A stretch of 64,000 nucleotides of DNA, from NCBI GenBank assembly GCA_963826115.1, contig CAWGVS010000010.1, positions 256,001-320,000 on the forward strand, written 5' to 3'. The notes below the pieces were generated by a model. It was not told the DNA's origin and did no database searches. It worked only from the letters and a program-made list of their open reading frames with translations. The DNA comes from an uncultured Candidatus Rokubacteria bacterium. Lineage in GTDB: Bacteria; Methylomirabilota; Methylomirabilia; Rokubacteriales; DASRDR01. Position 1 is the first letter of the stretch. Every line of letters starts with the position of its first letter. Shown piece after piece: positions 24,622 through 31,216 of the stretch. Position numbers and translations under genes: made by a program.

Positions 24622-26061
24622 GTGCCCCCGTCCCCGTCCGCCGCCGACCGCGCGGTTCGCCCGGTCATCCTGGTCGTCGACGACGATCCGGGCATCCGCG
24701 AGGCGTTCCGGCTGGTCCTGGAGGAGGAGTACGAGCTGGTGGAGGCGGTGGACGGCGCGCAGGCCCTCGAGCGCGTCCAGGGCTCGCCCGTGGACCTGGT
24801 CCTCCTGGACGTGCGGCTCCCCGGCATGGACGGCATCGAGGTCCTGGAGCGGATCAAGGGAATCGACGAGCACGTCGAGGTGGTCCTGGTGACGGCCGTG
24901 CAGACCGTGCGCGCCGCGGTGGCCGCCATGAAGCTCGGGGCATTCGACTACGTCACCAAGCCCTTCGACGAGGATGAGATCCTGCCGCTGATCCGCCGCG
25001 CCCTCGAGCGGCGCGCCCTGGACCGCGAGGTGGTCTACCTCCGGTCGGAGCTGGCGCGGGAGCGCGACTTCGACCAGCTGGTCGGCCAGCATCCGCTGAT
25101 GCAGCAGCTCTACCAGCTGATCGGCGCGGTCGCGCGGAATCCTCTCACCGTGCTGATCACGGGGGAGAGCGGGACGGGGAAGGAGCTGGTGGCGCGCGCG
25201 ATCCACCGGCACGGCCCGCGGCGGGACGAGCCCTTCGTCCCGGTGAACGTCGCCGCCATCTCCGAGACCCTGATCGAGTCCGAGCTGTTCGGCCACGAGA
25301 AGGGCGCGTTCACGGGCGCGGTGGCGCGGAAGCTCGGCAAGTTCGAGCTCGCGCACCACGGGACGCTCTTCCTGGACGAGATCGCCACGCTGCGCGTGGA
25401 CCTCCAGGCGAAGATCCTGCGGGTCCTCCAAGAGCGCGAGATCGAGCGCGTCGGCGGGACCCGGCGCATCCCGGTCGACGTCCGGGTGATCGCCGCCACC
25501 AACGCCGACCTGCGCAAGGCCATCCAGAGTGGGGGCTTCCGCGAGGACCTTTACTACCGTCTCAACGTCGTCCAGATCGCCGTGCCGCCGCTCCGGGACC
25601 GTCGCGAGGACGTTCCGCTCCTCGTGAACCACTTCGTCCGGCGGTCGAACCATCTCCTGCACAAGCACGTGACCGGGGTGTCGACGGCGGCCCTCGACGT
25701 GCTGATGGCGTACGGGTGGCCGGGGAACGTGCGCGAGCTCCAGAACGTCATCGAGCGCGCGGTGGCGCTGGCGGACGGGACGGTGGTCGAGGTGAAGGAC
25801 GTGCCGCTCGACCTGATGCTGCCGGACGTGCGCCACCTCGTCGACGATCCGACGAGCCTCCCGCTTCGCGAGGCGCGGGAGCGATTCGACCGCCAGGTCA
25901 TCCTCCGGGTGCTGGAGCGGGTGCGCTGGAATCAGTCGGAGGCGGCGCGCCTGCTGGGGCTCCACCGGAACTCGCTCAAGACGAAGCTCCTCGCCTGGGG
26001 GATCGACCCCGTCGCGCTGGCCTCGGCCGGCGGGCGAGGGGACGCCGGCGGTGCACAGTAG
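24622..26061 (+). CDS. NtrC-family sigma54-dependent response regulator (REC-AAA+-HTH)
   Basis: Receiver motifs VVDDD, LLDVRLP and KPF. Walker A GESGTGKE, ESELFGHEKGAFTGA, Walker B LFLDEI, WPGNVREL, and a Fis-type HTH NQSEAARLLGLHRNSL. Confidence 0.95.
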   Translation: MPPSPSAADRAVRPVILVVDDDPGIREAFRLVLEEEYELVEAVDGAQALERVQGSPVDLVLLDVRLPGMDGIEVLERIKGIDEHVEVVLVTAVQTVRAAVAAMKLGAFDYVTKPFDEDEILPLIRRALERRALDREVVYLRSELARERDFDQLVGQHPLMQQLYQLIGAVARNPLTVLITGESGTGKELVARAIHRHGPRRDEPFVPVNVAAISETLIESELFGHEKGAFTGAVARKLGKFELAHHGTLFLDEIATLRVDLQAKILRVLQEREIERVGGTRRIPVDVRVIAATNADLRKAIQSGGFREDLYYRLNVVQIAVPPLRDRREDVPLLVNHFVRRSNHLLHKHVTGVSTAALDVLMAYGWPGNVRELQNVIERAVALADGTVVEVKDVPLDLMLPDVRHLVDDPTSLPLREARERFDRQVILRVLERVRWNQSEAARLLGLHRNSLKTKLLAWGIDPVALASAGGRGDAGGAQ

Positions 26062-26185
26062 ACTGTGCACCCTGCACTGTCTAGTGTGCAGCGTGGCATA
26101 ACATATTGATTCTGAACGAGTAATCACGCCGGAGGTCCCGTCGGGGCGCTCACTCCCGTGTAGGAAGTGCACAAGAAACAGTGCA
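26052..26185. promoter_or_regulatory. Three TGCAC-N8-GTGCA palindromes, probable enhancer (UAS) sites
   Basis: Sites at 26052-26069, 26073-26090 and 26168-26185. The half-sites match the NtrC-type TGCAC/GTGCA and lie 100-235 bp upstream of a sigma54 promoter. Confidence 0.75.
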
Positions 26186-26285
26186 CCGTGAACTAGTGAC
26201 GATACACCCCACCTGCTGTCGCTCCGATTCGGATTCATCCGTAACGGCCAGCACTTAGATCTCCGAAGCGGGCTCGGATCCCCCG

Positions 26286-26301
26286 TGGCCCCGCCATTGC
26301 T
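26286..26301 (+). promoter_or_regulatory. Sigma54 (-24/-12) promoter
   Basis: TGGCCCCGCCATTGCT has exact GG-N10-GC spacing with TGGC and TTGC. It lies directly downstream of a sigma54 activator gene and 63 bp before the first peptide gene. Confidence 0.8.
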
Positions 26302-28833: not shown

Positions 28834-28844
28834 TCGGGGCTGGG

Positions 28845-30764
28845 ATGAGGCGCCCGGTGTTCGTCTCGCTCCGCACGAAGCTCCTCACCGGCACGCTGCT
28901 CATCGTCGCCGTCCTCATGGCCGCCGTGACCGCGGTCGTCGAGCACCGGCAGCGGACGACCATCATCGAGGAGGTTCACCGGCGCGGGACGGCGATGGCG
29001 GAGGGCCTGGCCGGGGTCTCGGCGGGCGCGCTCCTCCTGTACAACTTCACCGCGCTCGAGCAGAACGTCGTCCGCTTCGACCGCGAGACCGACGTCGTCT
29101 CCGCGATGATCCTCGACCGTTTCGGCCAGGTGGTGGCGCACAGCCGGACGCCCGCCGCGGTGGGGTCGACGCTGTCGGACCCGGTGTCGCTCCGCGCCCT
29201 CTCGGCCGCGCCCGTGCTCCAGGAGACGGCCGGGCCGGACGGCGAGGCTCTCTACGACGTCGCCGTGCCCATCCTCGTCGAGGGAGTCCGGTGGGGCACG
29301 GTGCGGATCGCGCTGTCGCGCCAGCGCATGGACGCGGAGATCTCGGGCACGCGGCGCGAGCTGGCCATGGTCGCGGTGGTCGCCCTCGTGCTGGGCGGGC
29401 TGGCGACGGTGATCGTCGGCCGCCGGATGACCCGGCCGGTCCGCCAGCTCGCCGACGGCGTCGCCGCGATCGCGCGCGGCGAGCTGGACCAGCGCATCGA
29501 ACCCGGCCGGTCCGACGAGCTGGGTCGCCTGGCGCTCGCCTTCAACGAGATGGCGGCCCAGCTCCGGCAGCAGCGGACGGACCTCGAGGTTGCCGACGCC
29601 GCGCTCCGCCAGCGGTTCGCGGAGCTCTCCGACCTCAAGAGCTACACCGACCACATCCTCCGGTCGTTCGTGAACGGCCTGGTGACGCTCGACCTGGACG
29701 GCCGGGTGGTCACCGTGAACCCCGCGGCGGAGGCCCTCACGGGCCGCGCGGCGGCCGAGCTCACCGGGCGCCCGACGACGGAGACGTTCCAGAACGCGCC
29801 GGAGCTCCGGGACCTGCTCCTCGAGACGCTGCGAACCCGGGTCGGCGTGCCCCACGTGTCGCTGATGCTGCCCCGGGGCGACGGCCCGCCGGTCCCGGTG
29901 GAGGTCACCACGACGCCCCTCCGCGGGGCCGAGGGGCAGGCGCTCGGCGTGGTGGCGATCCTCCGCGACCTCACCCCCGTTCGCCAGCTGGAGGAGCAGC
30001 TGCGGCGCTCCGACCGCCTCGCGGCGCTCGGCACCCTGGCCGCCGGCCTGGCCCACGAGATCAAGAACCCGCTCACCTCCATCATGACGTTCAGCCGCCA
30101 CATCGCCCGGCGATTCGACGACGAGCGGTTTCGGCAGCGGTTCCAGAGCGTCGTCCCGCGGGAGCTCGAGCGCATCAACGCGATCGTCGACGGGCTCCTC
30201 CGGCTCGCCCGGCCCGCGCGCCTGGTCCTGGCGCCGGTGCACGTGCCGCCCCTCATCGAGCAGGCCCTCGAGCTCTACGCTCCGCAGATCGAGGCCCGCC
30301 GCATCCGCGTGCGGCGCGAGTGGCCGATCGGCATGCCGCCCATCCCGGGGGACACGGAGCACCTCTACCAGGCCTTCCTGAATCTCGTCGCGAACGCGAT
30401 CGACGCGATGGAAGAGGAAGGGGGGACGCTCACCCTGCGCCTCGGCTGGCCCCGGGACGCCGACGGGCTCGGCCACGCCGTGCGCGACCGGGTGGTGCTG
30501 GAGGTGATCGACACGGGGAGCGGCATCAAGCCCGAGGAGACGCCCGAAGTCTTCAACCCGTTCTTCACCACGAAGTCGGGGGGCACCGGGCTCGGTCTCG
30601 CCATCGCCCACAAGATCATCGAGGATCACGGAGGCACGGTGACGTTCCGGAGCAGCCCCGGCCAGGGGACGGTGTTCACCGTGGTGCTCCCGGTCCGCGC
30701 CGGCCGGCACGCCGAGCCCCTGGTCCGCGGGGAGTGGCGAGTCGGGGGTCAGGCTCCCCCGTGA
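28845..30764 (+). CDS. Membrane sensor histidine kinase (TM-periplasmic-TM-HAMP-PAS-HisKA-HATPase), NtrB-like
   Basis: HAMP DELGRLALAFNEM, PAS VNPAAEALTG, H-box LAHEIKNPL, N-box NLVANAIDA, DTGSGI, FNPFFTTK, GTGLGL. Confidence 0.94.
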   Translation: MRRPVFVSLRTKLLTGTLLIVAVLMAAVTAVVEHRQRTTIIEEVHRRGTAMAEGLAGVSAGALLLYNFTALEQNVVRFDRETDVVSAMILDRFGQVVAHSRTPAAVGSTLSDPVSLRALSAAPVLQETAGPDGEALYDVAVPILVEGVRWGTVRIALSRQRMDAEISGTRRELAMVAVVALVLGGLATVIVGRRMTRPVRQLADGVAAIARGELDQRIEPGRSDELGRLALAFNEMAAQLRQQRTDLEVADAALRQRFAELSDLKSYTDHILRSFVNGLVTLDLDGRVVTVNPAAEALTGRAAAELTGRPTTETFQNAPELRDLLLETLRTRVGVPHVSLMLPRGDGPPVPVEVTTTPLRGAEGQALGVVAILRDLTPVRQLEEQLRRSDRLAALGTLAAGLAHEIKNPLTSIMTFSRHIARRFDDERFRQRFQSVVPRELERINAIVDGLLRLARPARLVLAPVHVPPLIEQALELYAPQIEARRIRVRREWPIGMPPIPGDTEHLYQAFLNLVANAIDAMEEEGGTLTLRLGWPRDADGLGHAVRDRVVLEVIDTGSGIKPEETPEVFNPFFTTKSGGTGLGLAIAHKIIEDHGGTVTFRSSPGQGTVFTVVLPVRAGRHAEPLVRGEWRVGGQAPP

Positions 30765-31216
30765 GCGGGCCGGCCGCGGGCGCGCAGCACGAAGGCGCGC
30801 CGCCGCCCCCGGGGGATCCCCCGCGAGCCCTCCTCGTCGAGGACGAGCGCTTCGTGGGCGAGCTCCTGGCCGAGTACCTCTCCCTGGAAGGGTACGAGGT
30901 CGATCGGGCGATGGACGGGCGGGAGGCGCTCGCACTCGTGCGGCAGCGCGACTATGCTCTGATCGTCAGCGACGTGCGGATGCCGGACGTCGACGGCCCG
31001 ACTCTCTACCGCGAGCTCCAGGTCGCGCGCCCCGAGCTGGCGCGGCGCATGGTGTTCGTCACCGGGGACGTCGTCAGCACCGGGACGCGCCGGTTCCTCG
31101 ACGAGACGTGCCTCCGCTACCTGGAGAAGCCGTTCACGATCGCGCAGTTCCAGAGGGTGGTGCAGGGGGTGCTGGCGGCGCCACCGCCGCCGGGCCGCGG
31201 ACCGGCGGCTACTTGA
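30761..31216 (+). CDS. Stand-alone response regulator receiver protein
   Basis: GTG overlaps the kinase TGA. Motifs LLVEDE, SDVRMP, VTG and EKPF. No output domain. Confidence 0.88.

Follow-up and report, generated by a model that had tools for sequence, protein, structure and literature searches.

Peptide signals that are made on the ribosome and sensed outside the cytoplasm are textbook matter in Gram-positive bacteria; to our knowledge, hardly any are known from bacteria that have an outer membrane. In the Gram-positive Agr, Com, Fsr and PapR/PlcR systems, an exported ribosomal pre-peptide is sensed by its producer and the peptide-receptor operon is autoinduced; the regulons of such peptides are rich in secreted proteases and phospholipases, and the peptide of PapR/PlcR and its relatives is captured by a protein of the OppA family. 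LuxO is the endpoint of the LuxP/LuxQ pathway, and AioR is a sigma-54 activator. According to the passages of PMC8050422 that concern them, sensor kinases that are stimulated by binding proteins include LuxQ (by LuxP), TorS (by TorT), AioS (by AioX; the sensor is sCache-like) and ChiS (by the family-5 protein CBP), and the binding-protein genes of such sensors lie together with signalling genes; none of the kinases in these passages has a gene-encoded peptide as its ligand. In the passages of PMC4987338 that deal with ZraSR, ZraR activates zraP and zraSR from sigma-54 promoters, and the periplasmic ZraP is described as a repressor of ZraSR. Here, we describe a gene cassette from a Rokubacteria (Methylomirabilota) metagenome-assembled genome, located at positions 24622-31216 of a 64 kb window (i.e. 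the whole stretch of DNA that was analysed; G+C ~72%), with all of its genes on the + strand. The elements that the original prediction had listed for this cassette are all present: an activator, three palindromes, a -24/-12 promoter, four peptide genes, a binding protein, a kinase and a receiver.

The cassette is real, it is conserved across the class, and it is unnamed in Pfam, in NCBIfam and in the protein-name records that were searched. A literature search at the level of titles and abstracts found no description of it, in agreement with the original prediction, which had not recognised the architecture as a described system. At the level of sequence, the four components, i.e. activator, peptide, binding protein and kinase, can be shown to have been inherited as one unit across the bacterial class. 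The regulatory loop that had been proposed for the cassette stands in so far as a functional unit of these four components, probably driven by sigma-54, is well supported by the synteny, the promoter and the presence of RpoN; the “quorum-sensing” label attached to that loop is weaker still, because the genome encodes BamA and LpxC, no exporter is conserved and the core of the peptide is conserved class-wide.

Our best reading of the cassette, about whose correctness we are evenly divided, is the sensing of a self-made peptide by a binding-protein-kinase pair, with autoregulation through sigma-54. The pre-peptide (~45 amino acids) would be exported by Sec and cut near a conserved P-x-x-E-S, giving an acidic, Gly-rich peptide of ~20-24 amino acids; the binding protein would capture that peptide, or a fragment of it with a free N-terminus; the loaded binding protein would dock on the Cache domain of the kinase and alter the phosphorylation of the activator; and the phosphorylated activator would bind the 18-bp palindromes and open the sigma-54 promoter of its own peptide-receptor operon, thus forming an autoregulatory loop. 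In this genus, the activator may also switch on ~nine other loci for secreted proteases and phospholipases.

Compared with the described systems, the cassette represents binding-protein-dependent two-component signalling in a new form: the binding-protein gene adjoins the gene of a kinase with an extracytoplasmic sensor domain, with no transporter. The likeness to the Gram-positive systems lies in a ribosomal pre-peptide, in the putative autoinduction, in a candidate regulon of proteases and phospholipases and in the possible capture by an OppA-family protein. The Gram-positive systems differ in that their peptide either acts on the kinase by direct binding or enters the cell through Opp and meets its receptor in the cytoplasm, in that dedicated processing and export genes are usual, and in that their hosts are monoderm and sigma-54 plays no part; the cassette peptides have no homology to Gram-positive pheromone peptides, as judged by the lack of any Pfam or NCBIfam match. 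With LuxP/LuxQ/LuxO, the cassette would share a non-transport periplasmic binding protein as co-receptor of a kinase with an alpha/beta (Cache-like) sensor domain, and a pathway that ends on an NtrC-type sigma-54 activator. The Vibrio system differs in its ligand, autoinducer 2, which is a small molecule and not a gene-encoded peptide; in LuxP, which comes from another binding-protein family; in LuxQ, a hybrid kinase that works through LuxU; and in the location of the signal gene, outside the receptor operon. In AioX/AioS/AioR, according to the passages of PMC8050422 on it, the binding-protein gene likewise adjoins that of a kinase with a sCache-like sensor domain; AioX differs in belonging to the phosphonate-binding family, in binding arsenite and in having no peptide genes. 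In the chitin sensing of Vibrio, a binding protein with the SBP_bac_5 domain, CBP, controls the sensor kinase ChiS (PMC8050422, same passages); here the ligand is a chitin oligosaccharide, and CBP also serves a transporter that is encoded nearby. With ZraP/ZraS/ZraR, as the relevant passages of PMC4987338 describe that system, the cassette would share a small periplasmic protein that is under the control of a sigma-54 activator and its kinase and acts back on both; ZraP differs in being a zinc-binding chaperone of a different family, in its divergent transcription and in the lack of any binding protein.

The evidence for a conserved unit comes from the neighbourhoods of the binding-protein gene in related genomes. 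Across 61 related genomes (the unpublished genomes G055 and G038 among them), the matches to the binding protein separate into orthologues (≥56% identity) and paralogues (≤42% identity). All of the first 20 orthologue loci have at least one peptide gene just upstream, and where wide flanks are available, one to five peptide genes are located directly upstream of the binding-protein gene in 34/34 loci. The activator is found upstream in 31 of these 34 loci (L048 and L056 lack it, and the contig of L058 does not reach it) and the kinase downstream in 32 (absent from L056, off the contig in L044), while 0/6 paralogue loci (~40% identity) have a peptide, an activator or a kinase. Fourteen further loci, ten from sister families and four from Rokubacteriales, keep the gene order as far as their contigs reach; in the sister families, where the kinase is without a PAS domain, the activator still comes first, then the peptide(s), the binding protein and the kinase. 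Over 48 loci, the neighbourhood holds the activator in 46, the binding protein in 46 and the kinase in 41, and any flanking gene in at most 11; no exporter, protease, processing, immunity or modification gene is conserved beside the cassette in this set, none of the flanking genes is a known modifying enzyme for ribosomally synthesised and post-translationally modified peptides (RiPPs), and flanking genes are conserved within the genus only. Because it recurs across the class, the arrangement goes beyond chance. The original prediction had named orthologues of the binding protein and the kinase that generally lack adjoining peptide genes as an outcome that would speak against it; it withstood this check, as the peptide genes were found upstream in every one of the 34 loci and in the sister families that were examined.

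The same association is seen across 251 genomes of the phylum, where the unpublished genomes G055 and G132 are counted within the tallies for the peptide, the binding protein and the strict palindrome; no claim made here rests solely on the three unpublished genomes, and the loci inspected come from other genomes. A profile built on 33 peptides matches 126/251 genomes (18/20 in family f1 and 91/159 in family f2, with weaker matches in 9/21 genomes of f7 and 3/6 of f10), and binding-protein orthologues, taken at E ≤1e-120, are found in 121/251. Both occur together in 111 genomes, the peptide only in 15, the binding protein only in 10, and neither in 115. Twelve regions from the exceptions were inspected: four “binding protein only” genomes hold divergent, sub-threshold peptides; two binding-protein genes are located at a contig end, and two “peptide only” genomes likewise end at the contig; two binding-protein genes are split by frameshifts; and two are unaccompanied paralogues (50% and 43% identity). 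Contigs labelled as Verrucomicrobiia, Nitrospira, Dehalococcoidia, Gaiellaceae, Binatia and Actinomycetota also carry the cassette, with binding proteins that are 61-69% identical; a wider host range drawn from these labels was rejected, and the contigs are read instead as mis-binned Rokubacteria or recent transfers.

Some loci depart from the common arrangement. At L056 (G004:C18:322000-337500), an array of whole, duplicated and frame-broken peptide copies (5351-6630, 8 profile matches) precedes an intact binding-protein gene in a genome without the strict palindrome; this cassette may be decaying or rewired. In G019, at C15:224587-227909, a palindrome and, within an open frame of 1360 residues, a kinase-like gene come after the activator; this genome is 9% contaminated, so that two strains may be mixed in it. 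Two genomes of other families, at L029 (7784-8484) and L038 (5280-6830), have between the orthologue and the kinase an additional binding-protein gene or fragment that is more divergent (45-54% identity), and further short kinase and receiver genes follow.

The four peptide genes of the window are located within a 218-nt unit that is repeated four times, with copies that are 69-100% identical to the reference copy. There are no peptide genes elsewhere in the genome: four matches have E ≤2.4e-9, and the other 13 have E ≥0.075. Each gene is preceded by a GGAGG ribosome-binding site. The first peptide has a basic N-terminus, a hydrophobic stretch, a P..E motif, an F.A.G.A core and a Gly-rich tail that ends in W. 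In the alignment of 33 sequences, residues L16, P20, E23, F33, A35, G37 and A39 are invariant, and the consensus runs from M-x-K through a hydrophobic stretch, A-P-V-I-E-S-G-T and 3-5 variable residues to F-Q-A-I-G-x-A-(D/E) and a glycine run; the conservation of the Cys and the final Trp of the window copies is limited to the genus. The ratio of nonsynonymous to synonymous substitution rates (dN/dS) has a mean of ~0.17 in two conserved blocks over 395 between-locus pairs, a value that is biased low, the blocks having been picked by amino-acid conservation. The ribosome-binding sites, the invariant residues and the dN/dS together argue that the peptide genes are real genes. Judged by eye, the N-terminal 24 residues resemble a Sec signal, with a basic n-region and 15-19 hydrophobic residues, and the putative cut would have Pro at -5, I/L at -3, then E, and Ser at -1; a retained membrane anchor is possible.

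The peptides match no Pfam or NCBIfam model and, by the same two libraries, show no homology to the ZraP/CpxP/Spy family. Among 8000 scored candidates from metagenomes, 1848 clusters belong to the peptide family at E ≤0.001; these clusters contain no Pfam domain, and the only name they bear is “hypothetical protein”. A look-alike search of the Atlas returned solely unnamed clusters of hypothetical proteins. The spacers between the peptide genes fold no better than shuffled sequences.

The binding protein has the SBP_bac_5 domain (Pfam E 5.5e-87, covering profile positions 2-364 of 368) and the fold of the family-5 (cluster C) solute-binding proteins, the mean predicted local distance difference test score of its AlphaFold2 model being 87. 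It has 55 solved relatives at E ≤1e-20, the nearest of which are the peptide-binding protein 8upi (9.3e-75) and DppA (1dpp, 1e-60); the pheromone-binding OppA homologue PrgZ (4faj, 3.8e-33) is also among them. Its residue numbers are given here as counted on a translation from 27184, i.e. one lower than in the real protein. D448 aligns with Asp408 of 1dpp_A, the residue that holds the alpha-amino group of the ligand in DppA, and at least 90% of 33 orthologues have it; Arg355 of DppA aligns with a Ser. The protein is located far below the NCBIfam equivalog cut-offs for DppA and OppA. Its gene is no part of an Opp/Dpp importer operon with two permeases and ATPases: the nearest matches to the permease domain BPD_transp_1 on the contig are ~18 kb downstream and ~26 kb upstream, and the 48 loci have no such gene as a conserved neighbour. 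A complex prediction for the binding protein (45-549) with the peptide (19-48) scored 0.02 against a mark of 0.32, which is evidence neither for nor against the contact. Some of the matches to the binding protein have “stops inside”; recoding and pseudogenes were rejected as explanations, since in the two loci that were checked, L035 and L039, these are the natural stop at the end of the alignment.

With its start at ATG 27181, the binding-protein gene begins 17 nt after the last peptide stop. The kinase gene may start at GTG 28812, thus overlapping the binding-protein gene, or at ATG 28845, leaving an 11-nt gap; the gaps of 17 nt and 11 nt and the 4-nt overlap that had been claimed for this part of the cassette hold with ATG 27181 and ATG 28845. 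The kinase consists of a transmembrane segment, sCache_3_2, a second transmembrane segment, HAMP, PAS, HisKA and HATPase_c, in this order (Pfam); its best NCBIfam matches, AtoS and ZraS, are both below the cut-off (225 bits against 479 for ZraS). The receiver (Pfam Response_reg, 2.8e-19) has homologues in 9 of the 34 wide-flank loci (L050-L055, L058, L060 and L068), all of family f1.

The activator has the features of the NtrC family, i.e. a receiver domain with a phospho-acceptor Asp, an AAA+ domain with GAFTGA and a C-terminal Fis-type helix-turn-helix: the Pfam domains are Response_reg (7.5e-31), Sigma54_activat (1.2e-71), AAA_lid_14 and HTH_8 (1.3e-11), and the translation shows GAFTGA, the Walker A motif GESGTGKE and the receiver Asp motif LLDVRLPGMDG. 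It stays below the cut-offs of the named NCBIfam equivalogs with which it was compared, the best being AtoC with 481.9 bits (cut-off 714), followed by NtrC with 450.9 (558.6), ZraR with 393 (760) and LuxO with 337 (800).

Upstream of the peptide genes, the pattern TGCAC-N8-GTGCA has three exact matches, and elsewhere in the window there is one more match, with a single mismatch, against 0.96 expected by chance in the whole window; palindrome 1 (see the table below) also fits the strict pattern TGCACWGTNNACWGTGCA, and the pair of palindromes spaced by 21 bp recurs at the same offsets in the genus and the family, and at other loci of the same genome. The sigma-54 pattern TGGC-N7-TTGCT has its sole match in the window upstream of the peptide genes, with 0.12 expected. 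This pattern is located upstream of the first peptide gene in 42/44 loci, and the remaining two have TTGCG variants, as judged by eye; the distance from the -24/-12 element to the first peptide ATG is ~75-100 nt in most of the 42, and ~110-140 nt in the sister-family loci. The genome encodes RpoN (444.7 bits against a cut-off of 277), so that the putative -24/-12 promoter expected of a unit under an NtrC-family regulator occurs together with its sigma factor. Scans of 24000-31800 for terminators and sigma-70 promoters gave no match. Among the sequencing runs listed for the sequence, none was of RNA, and the best DNA run contained 0.45 of the sampled words.

The hairpin at 26328-26346 of the window folds no better than shuffled sequences. 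Family f2 has a different hairpin at the same position (GCCCTC-ATGG-GGAGGGC, within ~60 nt upstream of the first peptide ATG in loci L031-L047, L059-L061, L111 and L112), with compensatory stem changes between species; one pair of stem columns reads AU in 6, GC in 5, CG in 3 and UA in 1 among 16 usable sequences. At L192 (G000:C6:562000-570500), another activator of the sigma-54 type, 48% identical, is found with a kinase and a small ferredoxin; these genes are preceded by three degenerate TGCAC-N8-GTGCA sites and divergent -24/-12-like elements, and may form a paralogous circuit with a related enhancer.

The palindrome also marks a candidate regulon outside the cassette. The loose palindrome has 24 sites in the whole genome, against 15 for a reversed control; the strict pattern has 12 sites in the same genome, and its reversed control has 0 matches in any of the 251 genomes. 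The strict palindrome is confined to family f1 (13/20 genomes, plus this one) and one f2 genome. Besides the cassette, ~nine other loci of the genome are marked by the same palindrome, with sites that are often paired 21 bp apart, and at 6/10 of the other clusters, a -24/-12-like element is located ~80-170 bp from the sites. The genes near the sites encode a lipoprotein that resembles M10 matrixins; a peptidase of family M43, whose gene follows a radical SAM gene; a subtilase of family S8, with fn3 and metallo-beta-lactamase-fold proteins on its flanks; two phospholipases, one patatin-like and the other Tle1-like, the latter beside a nonribosomal peptide synthetase module; a DUF4189 lipoprotein; and several proteins that belong to no family. 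In three further species of the genus, sites again precede the orthologues of the patatin, S8-operon, matrixin and u300-u312 genes. The genome has 28 genes for sigma-54 activators, and only that of the cassette has strict sites adjoining it. In a genus of f2, the variant TGCMCYG-N4-CRGKGCA has 2-3 sites per genome, against 0-1 for its control.

Table. Features of the cassette (window positions) and palindrome sites outside it (coordinates of the same genome).
Feature	Position	Strand	Remarks
NtrC-type sigma-54 enhancer-binding response regulator (activator)	24622..26061	+	Pfam domains
Palindrome 1, 18 bp, TGCACAGTAGACTGTGCA, candidate enhancer site	26052..26069	.	overlaps the activator stop codon
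Palindrome 2, 18 bp	26073..26090	.	begins 21 bp after palindrome 1
Palindrome 3, 18 bp, TGCACAAGAAACAGTGCA	26168..26185	.	118 bp upstream of the -24 element
Sigma-54 -24/-12 promoter element, TGGCCCCGCCATTGCT	26286..26301	+	pattern TGGC-N7-TTGCT
Hairpin in the 5' untranslated region, 8-bp stem, loop TCT	26328..26346	+	immediately before the GGAGGAGG ribosome-binding site
Peptide gene 1, 48 amino acids	26364..26510	+	open reading frame, ribosome-binding site, alignment
Peptide gene 2, 48 amino acids counted from the first of two ATGs	26581..26727	+	
Peptide gene 3, 48 amino acids, GNASDS against GDACDS in the other copies	26799..26945	+	
Peptide gene 4, 48 amino acids	27017..27163	+	
Family-5 (OppA/DppA-like) periplasmic binding protein	27181..28833	+	Pfam SBP_bac_5
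Sensor histidine kinase	28812..30764	+	GTG 28812 start, alternatively ATG 28845
Single-domain receiver	30761..31216	+	4-nt overlap with the kinase gene
Palindrome sites	C6:39022-39060, C6:778055-778093, C6:805717-805755, C6:1035917-1036037		own genome coordinates
Palindrome sites	C10:55132-55170, C10:60403, C12:568900-569021, C12:684500, C1:22222		own genome coordinates

Several observations weigh against the sensing of a self-made peptide, or against parts of the mechanism proposed for it. The cell is diderm, as judged by BamA (611 bits) and LpxC (300 bits), both above their cut-offs; given an outer membrane and no conserved exporter, a Sec-exported peptide of ~2 kDa would stay periplasmic. 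Signalling could be periplasmic and autocrine, or the peptide could be an induced feedback partner, like ZraP for ZraSR. The hydrophobic N-terminal part of the peptide is unusually conserved for a signal peptide, which could point to a membrane-embedded function, and the core is conserved class-wide and not diversified like many pheromones; dedicated processing or export genes of the AgrB or ComAB type are not conserved beside the peptide genes, which counts against the quorum-sensing label. One genome, G004 (95% complete), has kept the peptides and the binding protein with no activator or kinase orthologue anywhere, and in another, G019, the activator orthologue (71% identity) is found at a locus separate from the cassette. 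It is from adjacency only that we infer the binding of the palindromes by the cassette's activator; G005 has the cassette and no strict site, and the variant motif of f2 adds only 1-2 extra sites per genome. The boldest reading, i.e. peptide-pheromone quorum sensing in a diderm, where a released peptide would act through a binding-protein co-receptor, a Cache kinase and sigma-54 on its own operon and on secreted enzymes, is a tentative possibility that we would incline against.

Some of these points favour an accessory feedback of the kind known from ZraP/ZraSR, CpxP/CpxA and MgrB/PhoQ, which we consider somewhat unlikely: the binding protein would sense an outside ligand, e.g. oligopeptides released by proteolysis, while the peptides would be induced envelope proteins, anchored or periplasmic, that tune the gain of the kinase or the binding protein, as CpxP and MgrB do by feedback in their own systems. 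Such a role fits peptides that are made from a promoter which the system itself appears to control, a hydrophobic segment and P..E motif more conserved than cleaved signals are, as expected of a retained transmembrane helix, and a diderm cell, since the products of Sec remain in its envelope; the kinase and the activator match ZraS and ZraR strongly, though below threshold, and a candidate regulon of proteases and lipases would suit a nutrient-peptide sensor. It is harder to reconcile with peptides that resemble neither ZraP nor CpxP nor any other family in sequence, with their tandem amplification to 2-5 copies in several genomes, which is unusual for a regulator, and with their strict pairing with one binding-protein lineage, to the exclusion of its paralogue, a pairing for which an interaction would be the simplest explanation.

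The peptides may also be the output of the cassette, i.e. an antimicrobial, surface-active or metal-binding product that is unrelated to the sensing and has become its neighbour through co-regulation. High-dosage tandem copies, a small, anionic, Gly-rich mature part and the genome that retains the peptides and the binding protein without kinase and activator would agree with this, and family-5 proteins also bind sugars, nickel complexes and opines, according to family names and to passages of PMC8050422; we regard it as distinctly unlikely, in view of the lack of any conserved exporter, immunity or modification gene nearby, the Cys and C-terminal Trp that are not conserved beyond the genus, the kinship of the binding protein with peptide binders, including its equivalent of DppA Asp408, and the class-wide adjacency of peptide and binding protein, which would go unexplained. 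Highly improbable, in our view, is that the peptides are leader-core precursors of RiPPs, modified by enzymes encoded elsewhere, with the product serving as ligand or as end product: the multiple near-identical precursor copies, the conserved N-terminal part followed by a more variable middle and the radical SAM gene at one palindrome-marked locus would suit such precursors, but the 48 loci share no modifying enzyme beside the cassette, the N-terminal part resembles a Sec signal and not a cytoplasmic leader, and the link to the radical SAM gene is a palindrome shared in one genome only.

Rokubacteria are abundant yet uncultured soil bacteria, and across the class synteny ties a gene-encoded peptide firmly to a sigma-54 activator, a binding protein and a kinase. 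Were the peptide the ligand, as in our best reading, it would be a new type of input for binding-protein-dependent two-component systems and would offer a first opening for the study of cell-cell or self signalling in these bacteria; the receptor logic of a gene-encoded peptide, a binding protein and a kinase would, if true, be one that has not been described in any bacterium, and if the boldest reading holds, the cassette would be the first peptide-pheromone system of this design. As its parts are few and sufficiently soluble, the hypothesis can be tested in vitro or in Escherichia coli, without culturing the organism. The palindrome-marked protease and phospholipase loci of the genus are also new here, and this candidate regulon suggests that the circuit may time the release of degradative enzymes, and thus bear on the turnover of carbon and nitrogen in the soil.

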